Positions 40,877 to 52,673 of a DNA stretch of 64,000 bases are shown here, piece after piece. Where the stretch lies: positions 2,144,001-2,208,000 of the forward strand of contig CBDCCI010000002.1 of NCBI GenBank assembly GCA_965214705.1, written 5' to 3'. This stretch comes from Alphaproteobacteria bacterium. Its GTDB lineage: Bacteria; Pseudomonadota; Alphaproteobacteria; UBA828. Within the stretch, counting starts at the first letter, position 1, and the number at the start of each line of letters is the position of its first letter. The translations under genes were made by a program, and so were the position numbers. Under the pieces are notes generated by a model. The model did not search any database. It was not told the DNA's origin and saw only the letters and a list, made by a program, of their open reading frames with translations.

Positions 40877-41498
40877 GTACGGGTCGAGGGCGTCACGCGG
40901 CCTATGCTCCCGCTGTCGAGAGAAGGAGCGCCGCGAGAATGAGGCACACGCCCGTGAGCCAAGCCGCGAATACGGAATACGTCCACATCATCGAGGCGGC
41001 TCCTCACGGCAGAAGCAGATAATTGCCGTTGCAATCAGCCATTTGCTCCGCCTAAACGAGACGGGTACTCCGAACTCACTCATGGGCTTCTCACCTCACA
41101 ACCGGTGCCGTTCTCGAGAATCGAGACCGCGCGTCAGCATCGCAGTGTCAAAGTCGACGGAGACTGGGATCACTGGATAGAGAGAAAGTAGATATAAATT
41201 GGCAAGAAATGTACACAGAATCAATATACTTTGTTGATCTTGAGCTATATCCGTATTGACATATCTAACAACCTAATACTTTGTAATAACAAGATAAAAC
41301 ATATTAGTATATAAATTACATCTTAGAAACTGGCCCGACCAATGCGAAATTGATATGGAGTGGAAAGACCAATGCTCTCTTTCAAACAAGAGAGCATACC
41401 ATCATGGCATATCAACCATGTTATCGCGGTAGGGAACCGGGTTGCCCCGGTCCCCCCGCACAGATCCGGACGGGCGCTGTTCGCATCCGGCTCCTCCC

Positions 41499-44400
41499 TC
41501 AGGTCCTGACGACAAGCCGCTGGTTCGGCCACGGATGACGGATGCTGGCCTTGGGCCAGTGGGCAGCAGTGAGGGGATTGATATCCTCCCACGCGGTGCG
41601 GTCCCGTTGGGACCTTCGCCGCAGGGCACGCATGAGCAGCCGTTTGCATTGGTGCACGAACCGCACCAGATAGCGGCCGCTCCCGGGTACGCCGTAGTAG
41701 TTGAGCCAGCCGTCGATGACCCTTCCCAGCCACTTCGCTGTCTCGTGCCGGTTGTCGTGCCAGCGCTTGCGCAGCCTTTCCGCGATCCCCCGCAGAGTGC
41801 GGTTGACCCGTTTCCGGGATGGCCTGCGGCCGACCCTGAACCGTCCCTTCCTCGACTGGTCGCAGAAGTGCGTCATGCCAAGGAAGTCGAACGTCTCCGG
41901 CTTGCCCTGCCCCCGTGTCCGGCGGTTCGCTTTCGCGTAGCGGCCGAATTCGATGAGCCGGGTCTTGCCCGGATGCAGTTCCAGTCCGTACTGGGCCAGC
42001 CTCTCGCCGAGGTCCCGGAGGAAACGCTTCGCGTCGCCCTCGTGCTGGAAGCCGCACACAAAATCATCGGCGTATCGCACGATGATTGTGTCGCCTCCTG
42101 CCGTCCGTTTGCGCCATGTGTTGTGGAACCAGTCGTCGAGCACGTAATGCAGGTAAACGTTGGCGAGGCAGGGTGAGATTATCCCACCCTGCGGAACGCC
42201 CCTGCCGGTGTCCGTCCAGTCGGTCCCTTCCATGACGCCGGCGTTCAGCCACTTGACGATCAGCCGCATGACCCGCGTGTCTCCGATGCGCCTTTCGAGC
42301 ATCCCGACCAGGTGGTCCCGCCCGAGATTGTCGAAGAACCCGCGGATGTCGGCGTCAACGACCCAGTTGACCTTCCGCCGTTCCATTCCAACCGCCACGG
42401 CGTCGAGCGCGTTATGCGTCCCCCGCCCCGGCCGGAAGCCGTAGCTGAAGCCGAGGAACTCCGTCTCGTAGATCGGCACCAGAATCGTATCCGTCACCGC
42501 CCGCTGGAGTATCTTGTCCTCCAGCGAGGCGATGCCGAGCGGTCGTTGTCCCCCGTCCTCTTTGGGTATGTAGACCCGCCGCGACGGCGGCGCCCGATAC
42601 GCCCCCCTGTGCACACGCCCGTGCAGGTCGACCAAGCGATCTTCCAGCCCGTCGGCGTATGCCTCCCACGTGACGCCGTCCACCCCCGCTGCCGCGTCCT
42701 TTCTCAGCGAATGGTACGCGTCGCGCAGGCAGTCAACCGTCACATGGTGGAGGAGCGCCACGAGACACTCATCCGGGTTCCTCTTTGCAGCCTGTCGTAT
42801 CCGGTCGGCCGCCTGTGACTCGCTTCCCCGCTTCTGCGCGCGGCGCGAGCTTTGGCCTTTCGGATTGCCCTTGGGTCCGCCCCTTCGCTCCCCCGGCTCC
42901 GCCGGCCCCGAGGGGCCGTTGTTCGCCGGCTTCATTGCTGTCGGGTCGGAGGAGGCGCCCCGCGAGGCTAGCCTCCGTCCGCCGCTCAAACGGCCCGTAC
43001 GGTTTTCCCGTAAGCCGCTTTCACAAAGGTGTCTCAACGAAGGTTCAAGGACGGAACCAGTGAGATCAGGCGAACAAGCCCGTATTCGTCGATCAGCTTG
43101 CGCTCCGGCAACTGTTTCCAGCCAGCGTTGCGCCAGCGCTTGCGACGATGCGACCAGAGCCGCCGCACGATCCAGCCGTCAAGCTGGTGGAAGAGCCCGC
43201 GGACGTGGGCCTTGCAATAGTATTGGCCCCATCCCCGAATGATCGGGTTGATCTCGTCAATCAGCTCCTGCGTGCTGACAGGAGCCTTGCGCCGGGTACG
43301 CTGGCGAATCTGGTCCTTGAAGTGCCGGATGGATTTCTCACGCGGAACCGCGTAGCGCGCTCCCCCGCGAACCCCGCTCTTGATCTTGGAGGACGACAGC
43401 CGGAGAGGCCGCTCGCCCTGCTTGATCTTGTAGCCGAGGAACTCAAACCCGTGCCTGACATGGACAATGCGGGTCTTCCCGGCGTTGAGGGACACACCCA
43501 GCTTTGCCAGAATCCGCCTGGCCGTCTCCAGTGCTGCGCGGGCTTCCCCGCGTGTGCGGCACGTGATCAGCCAATCATCGGCGTATCGCGTTAGTCGATA
43601 GCCGCGACGACGCATTTCCCAATCGAACGGGGTCAGCAAGATATTGCTGAGCAGCGGTGAAACGATGCCGCCCTGCGGAGTGCCCTGTTCGGTCGGCAGC
43701 CTCTTACCGTCGGCCACCACCCCGGCCGTGAGCATCTGCCTGAGCAGACCTAATACCCGGCCATCCGAGACTCGCTGGTTGACGAGTTCGAGGAGCTTTT
43801 CGTGGTCCACGGACCCGAAAAAGTCTTTCAAATCCGCATCGAGAACCCACTCGTTGCCCTCGTCCAGTTCCCTCCATATCTTGCGTAACGCTCCATGGGC
43901 AGACCTTCCTTGCCGGTACCCGTAGTTGGCATCGTCGAACACCGGCTCGAAGATCGGTTCCAGCCGGTTCAGCAGCGCCTGCTGGCACACCCGGTCGTAG
44001 ATTGTCGGGATGCCGAGCGGGCGGAACTTCCCCGGCTGGCCCGCCTTGGGGATCAGGCATTGGAGAACCGGCTGCGGGTGATACTCACCGTCCCGCAACT
44101 CCCGGTGCAGGCGATCGAGATTTGCATCCAGCGATGCCTCGAACGCCGCTAAATCCTCTCCGTCCACGCCACCGGCACCCCGGTTGCGCTTCACCTTTTC
44201 CCAGGCCACCTCAAGGTTCTTCCGCTTGTACACCTTGTCCACCAGTGAGTGGACCTTCCTGTCACCCGCCGGGTTGATCCAGTCGATGAGTCTCCTCGGG
44301 CCATGATGTCCGGGTCTTTCGCTCAAGGAACTTGTCCGCGTCATGGTCCTTACTCACTCATCGCTGTCTCTCGCCGACCACCTCTGCCAACCGACTTCCC

Positions 44401-45001
44401 CGGCCCACACGGCCGCCGCTCGCGCGGTCACCCGGCTTTCGCCGGGCTTCAGGTACTATTCGGTTGTCCGATTGCTCGCCGCGCATCCTTTCCCATTTCG
44501 CCTTTCGGCTTATAGGGTCCGTTATCCCGGTGCCACCCGGGAACGCGGCGAGCCCTCCTGGGGTCACGTCCAGATCTTCCGTACCGTGCCGCTCGCAAAC
44601 ACCTTGGTGCGACGGGTGGGTAAGAACGCCTTCGCCGCCATAGTGCCGGCTCGACCTTGCCCCGTCTTTGGCCGACCGATTCATCATGGGGTGGCCCCCT
44701 CGATTACGGCCCGGTACTTCTCCGCAAGCCCTTCAGATTCCACCTCGCGGTGGACACCCTGCCTTCCGGTTGTCTTTCGACAGTGGACCAACTTAGCTCC
44801 TCCCTTGGCTGTCTCCGCCGTTTCCGGCTTCGTGCCCGTTTAGAGTTTCGCTTATCGGCTCACTCCGGCCAGTGAGGAATTACCCCCACTTTTGGATATG
44901 GCGCCCCTTACCCGAGCGCCAGTGGGACTTGAACCCACCTGATCTGGGCGCTGCCCAGCACACACTATGGGCGAATCTGATTTCTTCGAACCGTACATCA
45001 T
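41499..45001 (-). CDS. ltrA: Group II intron RT/maturase of intron A; join 45001-44964 + 42939-41499, 492 aa after intron B splices; no endonuclease domain
   Basis: AAGVDG, RPLGI, FSYGFRPGR, DADIRGFFD, GVPQGG.ISP, RYADD, FDFLG; joined length 1479 nt equals the joined right copy. Confidence 0.9.
42940..44963 (-). mobile_element. Group II intron B (2024 nt) nested in intron A (twintron)
   Basis: 5' GTGTG at 44963; DV AAGCGGCTTACGGGAAAACCGTACGGGCCGTTT and 3' end CCGACCCGAC at 42940; removal restores CCCATAGT|AGCAATG as in the right copy. Confidence 0.92.
43034..44344 (-). CDS. ltrA: Group II intron RT/maturase of intron B (intact, class F-like, no endonuclease domain)
   Basis: KVHSLVDKVY, GAGGVDG, RPLGIPT..DR, YGYRQGR, DADLKDFF, GTPQGG.VSP, RYADD, FEFLG, NPIIRGW. 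Confidence 0.93.
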   Translation of the reverse strand: MTRTSSLSERPGHHGPRRLIDWINPAGDRKVHSLVDKVYKRKNLEVAWEKVKRNRGAGGVDGEDLAAFEASLDANLDRLHRELRDGEYHPQPVLQCLIPKAGQPGKFRPLGIPTIYDRVCQQALLNRLEPIFEPVFDDANYGYRQGRSAHGALRKIWRELDEGNEWVLDADLKDFFGSVDHEKLLELVNQRVSDGRVLGLLRQMLTAGVVADGKRLPTEQGTPQGGIVSPLLSNILLTPFDWEMRRRGYRLTRYADDWLITCRTRGEARAALETARRILAKLGVSLNAGKTRIVHVRHGFEFLGYKIKQGERPLRLSSSKIKSGVRGGARYAVPREKSIRHFKDQIRQRTRRKAPVSTQELIDEINPIIRGWGQYYCKAHVRGLFHQLDGWIVRRLWSHRRKRWRNAGWKQLPERKLIDEYGLVRLISLVPSLNLR

Positions 45002-45359
45002 TGGGTTGCGGTATAGCTCCTTTCCTTAGCGGCCCCGCACGACCGCGGGGCAGTTCGAAGACCTCCCAGGTCCCGGTGGACTGCTTCGGCACGTGCCATG
45101 GTTCTTAGACCCCGCAGAGCCCCTGCTCGCCTCACCAAAACGGCTCACAGGGTGTTGCCTTCGGCTAATCTGACAGCCTCGGCACCCCGGTTGAATCAGG
45201 TTTCGTGGCTCAATAGCCCGGCCCGTGCCTGCCGCTTCCCAACGCTTCGCCTGCCGCCTCGCGACGACCGGCGCATGGGTCGCGGAGAAAGTGGTCGGTT
45301 CACCTCTCTTTCTGCCGGGACTTCCACCCGGCGACATTCCACCAGTTTGCCTGGCGCAC

Positions 45360-47749
45360 CAGACTTCCTGACCTCTGCTGATTTGGGGTGATGCGGTTTG
45401 CGTGGATTCCGGGGCTGCGGCGACCTCGTAGACCATGCGCAGTTCGGTCCCGGGGAAGACGGTTTCGGTGGCGTTGAGCTCGCTCAGGAGGGCATCGATC
45501 TGGCGGTCGCAGGCGTCATTTGCGAGGCCGAGAATATGGACCCGGAGAACGCCGTTGGCGGGGTCCGGCAGGATGTCGGCATCGGCGGCCAAGAGAGCCT
45601 GAAGCAGTTTCCGGGGATGAGGCTTCTTGCCTTGTCCCTGCATGACGGGGAGCATCATGCGGGTTTCGGCGCGGTAGGCGATCATGCGGATGACGTCGAG
45701 GAGGAGACGGTCGCGTGAGGGCAGGGCATCGAGCTGTCGGTCTTCGTCGAGGTCGCCGGCCCGACAGTGCTTCGGCACGTTCCTGCGGCTGGCCTTGGCG
45801 ATCTCGAGGGCGCCCTCGAGGTCCCTGACCTCGCTCCTGAGCTGCGCCGTCGGCCTCTTTTTCCTGGCCGCGCCGGCGATCCGGTTGCGCAGGCGGGCGA
45901 GCCGGCGTTCGGCGCTGCGGATTGCCTTGTCGTAGGCCCGCCGGAGCGGGTTGACGACCATGGTGTCGGGAGCGAGCGGCTCGAGTTGGTGGGTCGGCAG
46001 GGCGTCGAGGTTGAACTCGTCGCGCATGTACTTGAAGAAGTTTTCCTGCGACCAGCGCGAGACCATGGCGCCTGCGGCCTCGCCCATCGGTTTGTGCGGA
46101 TCGGTGACGATGAAGGGGATCTGGCGGCCGTTGTCCAGCAGGCGGCGGATCTGGCGCACCCTGAAGCCGTTCGGCAACGTCACCGGCTTTTCGGCCAGCC
46201 GCAAGGCGGCGGTGCCGCTCGTCGCCGGTCCGTGAATAGGAACGGTCGTCGCGCTGAAGTCCTCGACCGGCCAATCCTCGCCGCTGAAGTTCTTGTGCCA
46301 GGTCAGGCAAGCGATGCCGCGCCTCGCCAGCCGGCGGAACAGCTCCGGGCTCCAGCCCTCGCGGTCGAAGACCAGGGTGAGCGCGGGGTGGCCGGGCGCC
46401 TGTGCGGTCAGGTCCGGCGCCTGAGCATCGACGATCCCGAGCTCCTGCAGCGCCGCCACCACGTCGGCTTCGATGGCGGCGACCATCTTCGGATCCAGCG
46501 TCTTGTGCAGACAGAGCAGGGGTTTGCCGCCCAGGGCATTGATCCAGTAGCTGGCGCTGGCCGGCAGGCACAGCTTCTGGCGCGAGACGAAGTGTTTCGG
46601 CAGGCGTCCCTTGCGGCCGGCGTAGACCTTGACGTGCCCGTCGACGGCCAGCGTCGCCCAGAGCTCCGGCTCGTCGGCCTGCCAGCGCCTGGCAAGGGCG
46701 AGCTGCCAGGCCCGCACGCCGGCCTCGTCGTTGGCGATCAGCGCGATCTTGCGCCGCAGCGTCTTGACCTCGGGGCAGCGGTCGAGGCCGAGAATGGCGC
46801 CCCATTCGCCCGGCGGCCGGTAGCGCAGGCTCTCGGGATTGCGCACCCGCGCCAAGCTCATGAAGGCCAGGAAGAGCAGGATCGTGTTCAGGCCGTAATA
46901 GCCCTTCGGCAGCGGTGGCAGGACCTCGGTCGCGGCCAGCAGGCCTTCCTTGAGCAGAGCCGGCAGGGCGGTGAGAACGCCACCTGAGCGCACCCCGCGG
47001 GCGGCGCTGCCGAACTGCGGATCGACCGGCCCCGCCTGCCCGCAGCTGGCCAGCACCCGGCCCGAAACATCGCAGGTCGCGCGCCCCATCGGCGCCTGCC
47101 GGTCGCGCCGGTCGCGTGCGGTGCGATCGGTCTGCGGCCCGGCGTCGATGGGGCCTGGTGAGCGGCTCTGCGCCGGTTCCGTCAGGGGCGGCGCTTCCGG
47201 TCGTACCGTCTCGGACCCGGGGGCGCCGGCACCGTCATCGTCGACGCGCCGCTCAACCGCATCGGGCGGTGGACCCTGCGCCGAACCCCCGGGCTCCTGC
47301 GCCGCCTTGCCGATCAGCCCCTGCCGGCGCCACTTGTTGACCGACGCCACCGACACGCCCAGAACCCGGGCCACCGCAGAGCCGCTCAGGCCCGCTTCCA
47401 GCAACGCTGTCGCCTTCTCGGCCAGTTCCGGTGTGAACACCGACGGCCCGCGACCGCGCCGGGGTTTCAGAAACGCCGCTTCACCCTCGGCCAGGTAGCG
47501 CCGCCGCGCGCGCAGCACGGTCGCGCGCGAGACACCGAACGCGTCGACCAGATCCCGTTGCGCGATGTCGCTGACCACCGCGAGCCGGCCAATCCGCATG
47601 AGCATGGCGGCACGGTCATCGGCGGGGTGGCTGTCGAACGGAACGAGATTGGAGAAGTAGGTGAAGGTGTCGTCGGAGATCAGGACGGCGAAGCAGCTGT
47701 TGCCGATCGGAACCGCTTCTGGGGGGCAAATCGGGAGGGTGATGGGCAT
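45360..47749 (-). CDS. Putative DDE transposase, 796 aa; stop codon TG|A completed by base 41422 after splicing
   Basis: N-terminal HTH motifs, VDGHVKVY, VFDREG, RWSQENFFKY acidic motifs; frame reaches GGT CAG GAA GTC TG at the TIR. Confidence 0.8.
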
Positions 47750-47903
47750 GGCTCAGGCCGCCGAATCTGCGTCACCATAAAATAGCAGATTCCGCCGTGC
47801 CGATCAACGAAAACCTGGCCTGAAACGGGAAGAAAGCGGGGAATTTCAACGAGTTCCCGACGCACCGATCCGCATCGCCAAGGCCATGAGGTCAGGAAGT
47901 CTG
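45360..47903 (-). mobile_element. Insertion sequence of unassigned family (2544 bp), 16-bp perfect TIR CAGACTTCCTGACCTC
   Basis: TIRs at 45360-45375 and 47888-47903; direct repeat ATGTT at 41418-41422 and 52483-52487 lies outside the introns. Confidence 0.88.
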
Positions 47904-49602
47904 GTGCGCCAGGCAAACTGGTGGAATGTCGCCGGGTGGAAGTCCCGGCAGAAAGAGAGGTGAACCGACCACTTTCTCCGCGACCCATGCGCCGGTCGTC
48001 GCGAGGCGGCAGGCGAAGCGTTGGGAAGCGGCAGGCACGGGCCGGGCTATTGAGCCACGAAACCTGATTCAACCGGGGTGCCGAGGCTGTCAGATTAGCC
48101 GAAGGCAACACCCTGTGAGCCGTTTTGGTGAGGCGAGCAGGGGCTCTGCGGGGTCTAAGAACCATGGCACGTGCCGAAGCAGTCCACCGGGACCTGGGAG
48201 GTCTTCGAACTGCCCCGCGGTCGTGCGGGGCCGCTAAGGAAAGGAGCTATACCGCAACCCAATGATGTACGGTTCGAAGAAATCAGATTCGCCCATAGTA
48301 GCAATGAAGCCGGCGAACAACGGCCCCTCGGGGCCGGCGGAGCCGGGGGAGCGAAGGGGCGGACCCAAGGGCAATCCGAAAGGCCAAAGCTCGCGCCGCG
48401 CGCAGAAGCGGGGAAGCGAGTCACAGGCGGCCGACCGGATACGACAGGCTGCAAAGAGGAACCCGGATGAGTGTCTCGTGGCGCTCCTCCACCATGTGAC
48501 GGTTGACTGCCTGCGCGACGCGTACCATTCGCTGAGAAAGGACGCGGCAGCGGGGGTGGACGGCGTCACGTGGGAGGCATACGCCGACGGGCTGGAAGAT
48601 CGCTTGGTCGACCTGCACGGGCGTGTGCACAGGGGGGCGTATCGGGCGCCGCCGTCGCGGCGGGTCTACATACCCAAAGAGGACGGGGGACAACGACCGC
48701 TCGGCATCGCCTCGCTGGAGGACAAGATACTCCAGCGGGCGGTGACGGATACGATTCTGGTGCCGATCTACGAGACGGAGTTCCTCGGCTTCAGCTACGG
48801 CTTCCGGCCGGGGCGGGGGACGCATAACGCGCTCGACGCCGTGGCGGTTGGAATGGAACGGCGGAAGGTCAACTGGGTCGTTGACGCCGACATCCGCGGG
48901 TTCTTCGACAATCTCGGGCGGGACCACCTGGTCGGGATGCTCGAAAGGCGCATCGGAGACACGCGGGTCATGCGGCTGATCGTCAAGTGGCTGAACGCCG
49001 GCGTCATGGAAGGGACCGACTGGACGGACACCGGCAGGGGCGTTCCGCAGGGTGGGATAATCTCACCCTGCCTCGCCAACGTTTACCTGCATTACGTGCT
49101 CGACGACTGGTTCCACAACACATGGCGCAAACGGACGGCAGGAGGCGACACAATCATCGTGCGATACGCCGATGATTTTGTGTGCGGCTTCCAGCACGAG
49201 GGCGACGCGAAGCGTTTCCTCCGGGACCTCGGCGAGAGGCTGGCCCAGTACGGACTGGAACTGCATCCGGGCAAGACCCGGCTCATCGAATTCGGCCGCT
49301 ACGCGAAAGCGAACCGCCGGACACGGGGGCAGGGCAAGCCGGAGACGTTCGACTTCCTTGGCATGACGCACTTGAACGAAGCCGCTACGCGGAGTTAGCG
49401 GCGTAGAGTTCATTCATTTCCGAGGCGTCGCGGGTGCCGTTTGTTCTGTGCGTTCGCTTCCCGGTTGCGTCAGTGGCGCTCCGCCCGTCGGGTGGCGGAT
49501 CCCCAGCAGCCTCCCGATCACCAGTGGTTAGCATCGACCCCTGCGACGGACCGTCGCCGGATCGGTCCGGCGGCGCGCCGTCGCGATCCAGGGAGATCGA
49601 TA

Positions 49603-50481
49603 ATGACCGGGACCGCGTGCGACACGAACACCGTCACCCCTCTTCGCCAGCGCATGGAGGAGCAGCTCCGCATCGCCAATCTGGCCGCGAGCACGTCCAA
49701 GGCCTACATCTGCGAGATCAAGAACCTGGCCAGGTACTACGACGCCTCGCCGGACGAGCTCGACGCCGAGCAGGTGCGCCAGTGGTACCTGGGGCGGATC
49801 GACAAGGGGCTCAGTCCGGGCACGACCAACGTCTCCTTCGCCGCGCTGAACTTCCTCTACATCGACACACTCGGCTGGCCTGACCATGTCGCCGGCCTGC
49901 GCTCCCGCAAGAAGCCCGGCAAGCTGCCGCGCTACATGTCGGAGCAGGAGGTCGAGCACCTCATCCTTGCGACACCCGACCTCCGCCACCGTGCTGCCAT
50001 TGTCACCGGCTATGGCGGCGGGCTCCGCATCTCCGAGACCTTGGCCATCAAGGTCGGCGACATCCTGTCGGAGAAGAAGCTGCTGCACATCCCCTCCGGC
50101 AAAGGCGGCACCGAGAGAATGGCACCGTTGCCGGACATCGTCATCCACTACTTGCGCGTCTACTACAGGAACATCTGGCCGCGTCCGACGAGCTGGCTCT
50201 TCTACGGCGTCTCGCTCGACAGGCCCATCGCAACGGAGACCTTGCAGGCCGCCTTCAGGAGGGCGCGCGACATTGCCGAGCTCGACCGCAGCTACACCTT
50301 CCATTGCCTGCGCCATTCGGCGGCGACCCATCTCCTCGAGCGCGGCGGCGATATCGAGGTGATCCGGGACATGCTCGGCCATCGAAGCGCGAACACGACC
50401 CGTCACTACGCCCGCGTCACCGGCAAGATGTTCGAGGGCCTCGACCACCCGATCTCAGGCTTCGCAGCGTTGCGCAACTGA
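49603..50481 (+). CDS. Tyrosine recombinase/integrase with N-terminal SAM-like domain
   Basis: TPLRQRM, YGGGLRISE, GKGG.ER, HCLRHSAATHLLE, MLGH, TT.HY catalytic residues. Confidence 0.93.
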   Translation: MTGTACDTNTVTPLRQRMEEQLRIANLAASTSKAYICEIKNLARYYDASPDELDAEQVRQWYLGRIDKGLSPGTTNVSFAALNFLYIDTLGWPDHVAGLRSRKKPGKLPRYMSEQEVEHLILATPDLRHRAAIVTGYGGGLRISETLAIKVGDILSEKKLLHIPSGKGGTERMAPLPDIVIHYLRVYYRNIWPRPTSWLFYGVSLDRPIATETLQAAFRRARDIAELDRSYTFHCLRHSAATHLLERGGDIEVIRDMLGHRSANTTRHYARVTGKMFEGLDHPISGFAALRN

Positions 50482-50487
50482 CGGCGC

Positions 50488-51729
50488 GTGGAGGCCGAAC
50501 GCGCGGGCGTGGCGGAGATCTTCCGCCGCGCCGGCGCCGCTTTCCGTGAGCGCCACAAAGGGCGCATCGACGCCGCCCGGCTCAAGGTCATGGGCGCCAT
50601 CGAGGCGTGCCGCACCGCCGTGCTCGGCGGCCACATGTACGCCTGCGAGGGCTGCGGGCGCGAGCATCCGCTCTTCAACTCCTGCCGCAACCGCCACTGC
50701 CCCACCTGCCAGGGTCTCGCCGCCAACCTCTGGAGCGAGGAGCGCGCCGGGGACATCCTGCCGGTGCCCTACTTCCATGTGGTCTTCACCCTGCCCAAGG
50801 AGGTTGCCGCCATTGCCTTCTGCAACCGCAGGGTGGTGTTCGACATCCTCTTCCGGGCCGTCGCCGAGACCCTGCGCACCATCGCCGCCGATCCCCGCCA
50901 CGGCGGCATGCGCATCGGCGGCACCGCGGTCCTCCATACCTGGGATCAGAAGCTCCGCTTCCACCCGCACCTGCACGTGGTCGTGCCCAACGCGGGCTTC
51001 GACGTAGACAGTGGCGAGTGGAAGACGGGGAGCACCACCTTCCTCGCCCCCGTCAAGGTCCTCGGCAGCCTGTTCCGCCGCCTCTTCCTCGAGGAGCTCG
51101 CCCGCGCCCACGGCCGGGGGGACCTGGAGTTCCACGGCACCGTCGCCCACCTCGCCAATCCCGGCGAGTTCCACGCCACGCTTGCCGCCGCCCGGGCCAG
51201 GGACTGGGTGGTCTACGCCAAGCGGCCCTTCCGCGGGCCTGAGCAGGTCTTCCGGTACCTCTCGCACTACACGCACAGGATCGCCATCTCCGACAGCCGC
51301 ATCGTCTCCTTCGACGGCGAGACGGTCTCCTTCCGCCACCGAAAGCCCAAGGCGCCGGGGCAGAGAAAGCCGCGCTACGGCATCGCCACCGTGAGCGCCG
51401 ACGAGTTCATCCGCCGCTTCCTGAGGCACGTCCTGCCGGACGGCATGCACCGCATTCGCTACTTCGGCATCCTCGCCAACGGCTGCCGCGCCAGCACGCT
51501 GGAGAGAGCACGCCAGGCTCTCGGCGCCCTCGGCTGCGCCGCCCCCGAGGGAAGCGTGGACGGCGCTCAGGCCGAGCCCGACGAAGAGCCCGAGATCGGC
51601 ACCGCGCCCGTGGCCTGCCCCCACTGCGGCGGCGTCATGCGCCTCGTCCGCGAAATCCGCCGCCGCCATGAGCCCCGCTCGACGCGCGGCCCGCCGGCGC
51701 TGCCGCCGACCCACAGGGGGAAACCGTGA
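50488..51729 (+). CDS. IS91 family (Y2 HUH) transposase
   Basis: Zn motif CRT..LGG, SCRNRHCPTCQ, HUH HPHLH, Y2 motif YLSHYTHRIAIS, RIRYFGILAN, C-terminal CPHCG. Confidence 0.93.
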   Translation: MEAERAGVAEIFRRAGAAFRERHKGRIDAARLKVMGAIEACRTAVLGGHMYACEGCGREHPLFNSCRNRHCPTCQGLAANLWSEERAGDILPVPYFHVVFTLPKEVAAIAFCNRRVVFDILFRAVAETLRTIAADPRHGGMRIGGTAVLHTWDQKLRFHPHLHVVVPNAGFDVDSGEWKTGSTTFLAPVKVLGSLFRRLFLEELARAHGRGDLEFHGTVAHLANPGEFHATLAAARARDWVVYAKRPFRGPEQVFRYLSHYTHRIAISDSRIVSFDGETVSFRHRKPKAPGQRKPRYGIATVSADEFIRRFLRHVLPDGMHRIRYFGILANGCRASTLERARQALGALGCAAPEGSVDGAQAEPDEEPEIGTAPVACPHCGGVMRLVREIRRRHEPRSTRGPPALPPTHRGKP

Positions 51730-52673
51730 GACGGCCGCTCGCTTCGGCCCCGCGCAACGGCGCCAAAGCGCCGACGCACGACCGAACCTGTCTCCGCTTG
51801 AGCCGGGCTGACAGCCCTCGGCTCACACCCCGCTCAGTCCTCGCAGCGTGCGCCCGCATGCCTGCCGAAAGACCGGCGCGAGCGTCGATTTTATGCGCAA
51901 CTCTGCTGCCGGTGGATGCCGCCTGACGCTGACATCAGCGCACTTTCCACATAGCTCAACTTCGCCTCTCGTGGCCCGCGGCTTCGTTCAAAAGGGTTGG
52001 GCAGGCTCTCGAGAGAGAGCCTGCCCAACCCTTAACCTTCTGCGACCAGTCGAGGAAGGGACGGTTCAGGGTCGGCCGCAGGCCATCCCGGAAACGGGTC
52101 AACCGCACTCTGCGGGGGATCGCGGAAAGGCTGCGCAAGCGCTGGCACGACAACCGGCACGAGACAGCGAAGTGGCTGGGAAGGGTCATCGACGGCTGGC
52201 TCAACTACTACGGCGTACCCGGGAGCGGCCGCTATCTGGTGCGGTTCGTGCACCAATGCAAACGGCTGCTCATGCGTGCCCTGCGGCGAAGGTCCCAACG
52301 GGACCGCACCGCGTGGGAGGATATCAATCCCCTCACTGCTGCCCACTGGCCCAAGGCCAGCATCCGTCATCCGTGGCCGAACCAGCGGCTTGTCGTCAGG
52401 ACCTGAGGGAGGAGCCGGATGCGAACAGCGCCCGTCCGGATCTGTGCGGGGGGACCGGGGCAACCCGGTTCCCTACCGCGATATGTTACAGCGTAATCTC
52501 TTGGGAACACCATGAGATTTCATGGGAATTTCATCACCTAATAGTCTTGATTCTAGAGGGAAAACCGGCCCGACCTTCCATGCCACGTGTGCGACTCGGG
52601 GCGCGGTGGAGACGGGGCAACTGGTCGACTACCATTGGGGTCGAACGGGAAAGCCTCGGGGAGGGCCGGTGCC

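Follow-up and report, generated by a model that had tools for sequence, protein, structure and literature searches.

How do two identical group II introns come to flank a single insertion sequence (IS), each standing exactly at one of its ends and pointing away from it? The question is raised by a 64,000-nt stretch of the genome of an alphaproteobacterium of the UBA828 lineage (GenBank assembly GCA_965214705.1, contig CBDCCI010000002.1, positions 2,144,001 to 2,208,000 of the forward strand), here called the window. Within it, both tips of a 2544-bp IS are directly abutted by outward-facing copies of a 1913-nt group II intron, intron A, and the two copies are 100% identical. The best explanation, and one that we hold to be highly probable, is that intron A retrohomed independently into each IS/host junction after the IS had inserted.

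The intron–IS–intron block and its homing site

The 5′ ends of the two introns (GTGCG) lie at 47904 on the plus strand and at 45359 on the minus strand, and GAGGTCAGGAAGTCTG stands immediately before each. A repeat search of the window returned three inverted-repeat pairs within 41422-52483, of 412, 1074 and 447 nt and all 100% complementary (Table 1). Taken in order, these are two copies of intron A that diverge across 45360-47903, each split by a different nested insertion; 1913 nt is the length of the intron once the nested elements are subtracted. The original prediction, made from the sequence alone, had placed two outward 1913-nt introns at the exact ends of the 2544-bp IS, with the terminal inverted repeat as both 5′ exons and A as the first base of both 3′ exons. 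Its coordinates and exon assignments all agree with our reading of the sequence; its length for the intron allows for the nested elements, but the two elements themselves went unmentioned.

The whole genome (7.92 Mb in 3 contigs) was queried with each piece of the block. Intron A is present in six copies, all 100% identical save for one 4-nt deletion, and five of these keep a 5′ end. Every one of the five 5′ junctions reads GAGGTCAGGAAGTCTG followed directly by GTGCG, so that all copies with a 5′ end follow an IS tip, as had been anticipated, and all six 3′ junctions read ...CGCGAT followed by A. The genome holds 19 GGTCAGGAAGTCTG sites with at most one mismatch (18 exact), five of which are followed by intron A. 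The L and R tips, which differ from each other upstream of -16, are both used. The IS itself is present five times, whole or split. In the window copy both tips are occupied, as they are in a copy at C3:2098295-2105300 that is broken by other insertions; copy 2 (C3:23898-26441, 99.96% identical) has an intron at one tip, and two further copies, at 94% and 85% identity, have none at either. IS alleles with no, one and two introns, for which the original prediction had called, are thus all found in this genome.

Pairing between intron and exon would account for this choice of site. Exon-binding site 1 (EBS1, CAGAUU, 48091-48096) pairs at six of six positions with the intron-binding site (IBS) AGUCUG at -6 to -1, and EBS2 (CCUGAU, 48063-48068) pairs at six of six with GUCAGG at -13 to -8. 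EBS1 lies in the loop of a GGCU/AGCC hairpin, where the RF02005 consensus structure puts it (alignment of an identical copy, L014). RF02005 has 27 matches in the genome that exceed the cut-off, among 33 listed, and these represent several lineages whose 5′ exons differ. Together with relatives from other genomes, they provide 28 distinct junctions and 15 distinct EBS1 hexamers, in which cognate EBS1/exon pairs match at a mean of 5.46 of 6 positions, with 19 of 28 fully paired, against a mean of 2.79 and 6 of 392 fully paired for non-cognate combinations. The predicted EBS1 thus holds up, backed by covariation. This covariation and the position of all five copies at tips support the IS tip as the homing site of intron A, in keeping with the earlier proposal that the intron specialises on the IS end. 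The A at +1 may be the IBS3 contact; one empty L tip, otherwise perfect, has C at +1 and is the sole support for the intron needing A there.

Both copies in the window match RF02005 (group II intron D1-D4) with 154.2 bits against a gathering score of 49 (45100-45324, minus strand; 47939-48163, plus strand), and alignment of domains V and VI in the uninterrupted copy places a bulged A 7 nt from the terminal AU. The intron-encoded protein (IEP) has RVT_1 (1.8e-34) and GIIM (2.1e-5) domains (Pfam, on the longer open reading frame [ORF] 41499-43037), scores 339.9 bits with TIGR04416 (cut-off 300) and carries a YADD motif; Pfam and NCBIfam domain searches found no endonuclease domain in it. Splicing and retrohoming of intron A are predicted on indirect grounds, five copies of identical sequence sharing a single target. 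Four of the six copies have an intact IEP ORF. Copy A1 has this ORF split by an IS91-like element, copies A2, A3 and A5 contain a second group II intron (intron B, itself broken in A5), and copy A4 is uninterrupted but frameshifted.

Order of events and route of entry

At all three intron-bearing IS copies, 5-bp duplications (ATGTT in the window, AAGTT and AGGCT at the other two) lie outside the introns, and at IS copy 2 one repeat of the duplication adjoins the naked tip and the other the outer end of the lone intron. Because matching duplications lie beyond the introns at three loci, the IS was in place before the introns, and these went in afterwards, each at the boundary of the final IS base with the duplication. 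The original prediction had argued for this order from the window locus and had noted that the 16-bp inverted repeat stays physically intact after intron entry; both statements stand, the former now resting on three loci, one of them with a single-intron IS.

A duplication that brackets the entire block might also be expected if the introns were part of the transposing unit, the 11-kb block moving whole and making the 5-bp duplication itself. We regard this as scarcely credible, given that the outer ends (...CCGCGAT) are unlike the IS inverted repeat, that the duplication of IS copy 2 lies at one naked tip and one intron end, and that 180 naked tips in other genomes have the same kind of duplication. 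Moreover, nested content differs between blocks, and the same block with new duplications was not found: there are only three intron-bearing IS loci, all different.

Homologous recombination or segmental duplication between IS and intron copies, rather than repeated homing, could in principle have spread the intron, and one copy does bear the marks of exchange. Copy A6 (C1:1697994-1699511) has lost its 5′ part; as unrelated sequence precedes its nested intron B, it is best read as a chimera, a recombinant between two intron-B copies. Three copies of intron A also hold intron B at the same place. Recombination would, however, unmatch the flanking duplications, which are matched at all three loci; tips with different sequence upstream of -16 are both used; and EBS/IBS complementarity accounts for the site. 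Spread by this route is therefore very improbable.

Independent retrohoming, the reading that we prefer, would proceed as follows. An IS with a PF21804 transposase, 16-bp repeats and a 5-bp A-R-N-Y-T duplication would have inserted at ATGTT, and an RF02005-type intron would then have retrohomed separately into each IS/host junction. Recognition would consist of RNA-DNA pairing of EBS2 and EBS1 with the terminal 13 nt of the repeat, which in the outward direction are GUCAGG, a single A left unpaired and AGUCUG, each tip presenting the same site on opposite strands. Insertion after the last IS base would make host DNA the 3′ exon and leave the IS intact, and the A at +1, the putative IBS3 contact, would be provided at both tips by the preference of the IS for A...T targets. 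At the L tip, splicing of a read-through transcript would restore a 796-aa transposase, and an unspliced message would yield 907 aa. Priming is probably from the nascent strands of replication forks, a route established for RmInt1 and other introns that lack an endonuclease. The introns may in turn affect transposition of the IS.

A different source of primers would link homing to transposition itself. The intron would enter fresh IS insertions, primed not by fork strands but by a transposase-made 3′-OH on the target strand, an idea that we consider unlikely. Its more specific form is equally unlikely: here the intron would reverse-splice into the joint between IS and target, and the 3′-OH that the 5-bp stagger of strand transfer exposes 5 nt past the tip, in a gapped product, would prime cDNA synthesis and replace the missing intron endonuclease. 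Several features are as such coupling would have them. The insertion point of the intron is the joining site of the transposase, with the intron facing outward; both tips are filled in two of the three young IS copies, five of six tips being filled in the three youngest (97-100% identical), none of four in the 94% and 85% copies and none in short derivatives of the IS. A GC skew on contig 3, which is weak, puts the origin near 0 and the terminus near 1.88 Mb; by this measure three of the five intron A copies, among them the one at the only IS with a single occupied tip, point with the fork, as is preferred by introns that lack an endonuclease, and two oppose it. If true, coupling would account for the exact tip position, outward facing, fork-independent use of two tips and occupancy of young IS copies only. 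However, the proposal is drawn purely from geometry, with no established mechanism of the kind behind it, and the skew signal is faint. Bacterial introns usually leave homing sites unsaturated (PMC3522654), and the emptiness of the older sites can be put down to differences in the distal part of their 5′ exon or at +1.

Several observations weigh against retrohoming of intron A into IS tips as outlined above. The RF00029 model gives the 3′ end of the uninterrupted copy 34.2 bits (E 4e-4; gathering score 40), with one non-standard pair. None of the six copies combines uninterrupted RNA with an intact IEP, and mobility today is therefore uncertain; the homing burst is recent, its present activity uncertain. 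The EBS1 and EBS2 pairings of the original prediction are both complete in intron A, but covariation, which bears out EBS1, is weak for EBS2 in other lineages, where alignment is uncertain. A search for EBS3 of intron A did not locate it, few lineages having a known +1 base. Nine naked sites with the exact 14 nt and A at +1 remain, so occupancy is far from saturated, and the naked R tip of IS copy 2 is identical over 40 nt to an occupied site. Beyond this genome, no intron was found at 180 related IS tips (79 loci in other genomes), the tip/intron junction pattern had no match in metagenome contigs that hold 8 naked L tips, and in a congener, where the IS numbers at least 14 copies, the tips examined were free of intron A. 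Public contigs over 41300-52600 are short unitigs that break at repeats, none spanning the region.

This fragmentation bears on whether the symmetric arrangement could be an artefact of mis-joined repeats, in a very repeat-rich genome with well over 100 copies of the 2663-bp element nested in the right-hand intron and more than 20 of intron B. The public unitigs neither confirm nor refute the long-range order, since parts without a bridging piece are uninformative; the tip/intron junction (the 16-nt repeat with the 5′ part of the intron) is found in single unitigs of public runs X1 and X3 (one study, P1). The different nested elements in the two arms, which distinguish the two intron copies, and the 5-bp duplication shared by the outer flanks, typical of this IS and recurring in like manner at the AAGTT and AGGCT loci, argue against mis-assembly, to which we assign a minimal chance.

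The insertion sequence, its stop codon and the nested elements

The transposase matches PF21804 (Transposase_29, 1.3e-105) and helix-turn-helix (HTH) domains in Pfam; none of the NCBIfam IS models reaches its cut-off, their matches being confined to the HTH region. Homologues number 2294 proteins at E≤1e-10 and are common among metagenome-derived proteins, and 0 of 120 among the matches listed bear a name. The IS is probably a DDE-type element of an unnamed family.

Of 69 paired ends among relatives of the IS in other genomes (79 loci), 58 directly adjoin a perfect 5-bp duplication, with the consensus A-R-N-Y-T (A at position 1 in 55/58, T at position 5 in 56/58), and the first flank base is A at 166 of the 180 tips. 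This target preference accounts for A as the first flank base at both tips in the window. A 3-bp duplication (TGT) with a 17-bp repeat was also considered, having been offered in the original prediction as an equivalent description; it was rejected, since departures from A...T recur on both sides (GAGAT, GATTT, GAGTT, AAGTC, ATCTC, AAATG), the outer bases being copied on both flanks. The IS ends exactly at ...CTG.

Even where transposase identity is as low as 55-57%, in elements from metagenome-assembled genomes (MAGs) labelled Spirochaetia and Rhodobacterales (the latter with dozens of copies), the 16-bp repeat CAGACTTCCTGACCTC is preserved in full or almost so, and it is conserved too in elements of MAGs labelled Thalassobaculaceae. 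Conservation across these groups implies a wide potential niche for the intron. Relatives of intron A at 70-76% identity, in 61 related genomes, follow other 5′ exons, to which their EBS1 sequences match; for the closest (G047, 74-76% identity), ORF lists of the flanks show nothing obvious to place them at IS tips. In the congener with its 14 or more IS copies (G012, contig 8, 736210-741395; loci L081, L028 and L046), an IS copy with the duplication AAACT lies inside the IEP ORF of an A-like intron, the nesting being reversed relative to the window. Elements of about 263-274 bp in the present genome (C3:590403-590665, C3:3022297-3022559, C1:4118905-4119178) share the IS tips, have their own 5-bp duplications and look like derivatives of the IS of the miniature inverted-repeat transposable element (MITE) type; none of these short derivatives carries an intron.

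The transposase frame has no stop codon inside the IS, its final codon consisting of TG (45361-45360) and the first flank base. With the L-tip intron in place the junction codon is TGG and the frame continues to 907 aa; exact excision in silico gives TGA, which ends the frame after 796 aa. The L-tip intron is thus a sense-strand intron inside a composite transposase stop codon, TG/A, and its position is the usual one of an intron in a gene; transposase length would depend on splicing. The junction codon is TGA in 18 of 20 related elements whose frame reaches the tip, since the A-R-N-Y-T preference supplies the A. The R-tip intron, on the upstream side of the transposase gene and in antisense orientation, would depend on a transcript that runs outward; a promoter scan of 45200-48100 found no sigma-70-like site, a result uninformative for transcription of the R-tip copy.

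Table 1. Coordinates of the intron–IS–intron block within the window.
Feature	Position	Strand	Remarks
Inverted-repeat pair 1	44964-45375 / 47888-48299		412 nt, 100% complementary
Inverted-repeat pair 2	41866-42939 / 48300-49373		1074 nt, 100% complementary
Inverted-repeat pair 3	41422-41868 / 52037-52483		447 nt, 100% complementary
Left target duplication ATGTT	41418-41422		Identical to 52483-52487; outward on the minus strand AACAT, start of the 3′ exon of the minus intron
Intron A minus copy, 3′ portion	41423-42939	-	IEP ORF, domains V and VI; ends ...CCGCGAU at 41423
Intron A intact IEP	41499-42935	-	478 aa; RT and maturase domains, YADD
Nested group II intron B	42940-44963	-	2024 nt; in domain IV of intron A; starts GTGTG
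Intron A minus copy, 5′ portion	44964-45359	-	396 nt, D1 onward; RF02005 match; EBS1 45172-45167, EBS2 45200-45195
IS	45360-47903	-	2544 bp, single transposase gene
L-tip inverted repeat CAGACTTCCTGACCTC	45360-45375		Outward gives IBS2 GTCAGG and IBS1 AGTCTG for the minus intron
Transposase ORF	45362-47749	-	796 codons within the IS; HTH domains and PF21804 Transposase_29; TG of the split stop at 45361-45360
R-tip inverted repeat GAGGTCAGGAAGTCTG	47888-47903		Serves the plus intron as 5′ exon
Intron A plus copy, first 1470 nt	47904-49373	+	Runs from D1 through D3 into the start of domain IV and covers most of the IEP ORF
Nested 2663-bp element	49374-52036	+	Tyrosine recombinase and IS91-family transposase; interrupts the IEP ORF of the plus intron
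Intron A plus copy, last 446 nt	52037-52482	+	End of the IEP ORF, domains V and VI; 100% inverted repeat of 41423-41868
Right target duplication ATGTT	52483-52487		Start of the 3′ exon of the plus intron

Intron B, whose boundaries are fixed by the uninterrupted sequence of the plus copy, interrupts intron A without a duplication, 4 nt upstream of the IEP ATG, producing a twintron. Its own IEP (43034-44344, minus strand) matches RVT_1 (3.1e-40), GIIM (2.2e-19) and TIGR04416 (383.8 bits), and its RNA has no Rfam match at E≤0.1. Of 21 intron B 5′ junctions, ten are found within domain IV of an RF02005-type host (lineages A, D and F), at the site ...CCATAGT/AGC(A/G)ATG just upstream of the IEP start of the host intron. 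The other copies follow ...TAGT at different sites, and the 3′ exon begins with A in all. The 2663-bp element, its boundary ambiguous by 3 nt (CTT), encodes a tyrosine recombinase (49441-50481; Phage_integrase, 6.7e-33) and an IS91-family transposase (50488-51729; Y2_Tnp, 3.3e-54; Zn_Tnp_IS91, 4.2e-30; NF033538, 382.8 bits). It has undergone a very large expansion, with well over 100 BLAST rows at 98-100% identity on three contigs. Many copies are split at positions 1291-1304, and insertion of D-type RF02005 introns explains the splits near position 1293; such introns lie antisense in the IS91-like transposase gene after ...GAAGAGCGGA (window 50660-50700; C1:795494, C3:1609643 and others).

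A second association of introns with IS tips occurs in the same genome, at C1:421541-424505 (L166), C1:2635785-2638756 and C1:1501614-1503884. Here ORF-less RF02005 introns of about 672 nt lie 20 nt inside the tips of an IS66-family element (GTAAGAGGGGCAAATCCTGG) and face inward, a geometry like that of RmInt2, discussed below; in the IS66-family element, the inward introns form 314-bp terminal inverted repeats. Elsewhere, two ORF-less E-type introns stand head to tail (C1:1859880 and C1:1860551, 671 nt apart), the second following ...CCCTACCGCGAA, which resembles the 3′ end of intron A. Head-to-tail copies have been reported for RmInt2 (PMC4615759).

Comparison with known introns at insertion sequences

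The original prediction took the relationship between intron and IS to be undescribed, but a precedent exists. In Sinorhizobium meliloti GR4, both inverted repeats of ISRm17, an IS of the ISNCY/ISDol1 group (PMC10194956), serve as homing sites for RmInt2 (Martinez-Rodriguez et al. 2014, PMC4615759; see also PMC5894124). The 2014 paper notes that repeat targeting makes twice as many sites available, one of them always on the lagging-strand template, and reports a U-A pair for EBS3/IBS3. With the intron A IEP as query, seven RmInt2 copies were found on the GR4 plasmids, having T at -15, IBS2 AGTGC and an unpaired -11 position, in agreement with that paper. Each copy has a distinct host flank, then 16 conserved nt (CTAGTGCCCRTCCATA), then the intron; the downstream sequences form two classes, each conserved for more than 200 nt, corresponding to two IS interiors.

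RmInt2 and intron A are alike in being endonuclease-less, in having IBS1 and IBS2 in the terminal 14-16 nt or so of an IS repeat, in the A at +1 and in using both IS ends, on opposite strands. They differ in where they insert. RmInt2 lies 16 nt inside the tip and faces inward, with host flank plus tip as 5′ exon and IS interior as 3′ exon; the repeat is thereby divided, and the intron is carried inside the IS. Intron A, in contrast, stands exactly at the tip and faces outward, outside an IS left whole, with host DNA as 3′ exon. The 'hitch-hiking' of the original prediction therefore holds only in an indirect sense, as the intron would not be carried by transposition. The components differ as well: RmInt1 and RmInt2 match RF01999 and intron A RF02005, their IEPs are 35-36% identical to that of intron A, and by RNA and IEP together intron A appears to fall outside class D (IIB3), the class of RmInt1 and RmInt2; a look through PMC3522654 yielded no class assignment for relatives of intron A. 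ISRm17 has DUF772 and DDE_Tnp_1 domains in place of PF21804, and a tblastn search of 72,556 plasmids with the window transposase gave no match, indicating that ISRm17 is not a close relative.

Other introns share single features. RmInt1, in ISRm2011-2, and E.c.I4, in IS3-like transposase genes, also have a multicopy IS as homing site, and RmInt1 is likewise without endonuclease, with priming at replication forks expected (PMC5894124; PMC3522654). Their targets lie within the transposase gene, and the RmInt1 copies in the GR4 sequences sit in conserved IS coding sequence, unlike the target of intron A, which is the very tip plus 1 nt of non-IS DNA. Class C (IIC) introns, which insert after terminators or in attC sites, resemble intron A in that they enter non-coding DNA at a structural boundary and ask little of the 3′ exon (PMC3522654). 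They recognise a stem-loop and do without EBS2, whereas intron A would use EBS1 and EBS2 on a linear 13-nt site. An Azotobacter groEL gene contains a group II intron within its stop codon, and splicing restores termination; the stop codon at intron A differs in being composite (TG from the IS, A from the target), and the same site recurs at a non-coding tip. IStrons are single chimeric elements in which a group I ribozyme and an IS200/605 transposase move together; the intimacy of intron and IS is similar here, with two autonomous elements side by side.

We found no case of a tip-abutting, outward-facing intron in the open-access literature. What is new is the element pair, the type of intron, the tip-exact outward geometry, the sole host contact supplied by IS target preference and the position in a stop codon. 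As the site takes in only one host base, which comes with the IS target preference, every transposition would provide two further homing sites, ready for use wherever in a genome the IS lands, and a 13-nt programmable site with an almost free 3′ exon may interest targetron designers. Intron A is the second documented group II intron that we could find to use IS inverted repeats as a homing site. Since both the intron type and the IS family differ from those of RmInt2 and ISRm17, the strategy has evolved more than once, and the geometry at the present locus is the mirror image of the earlier one.

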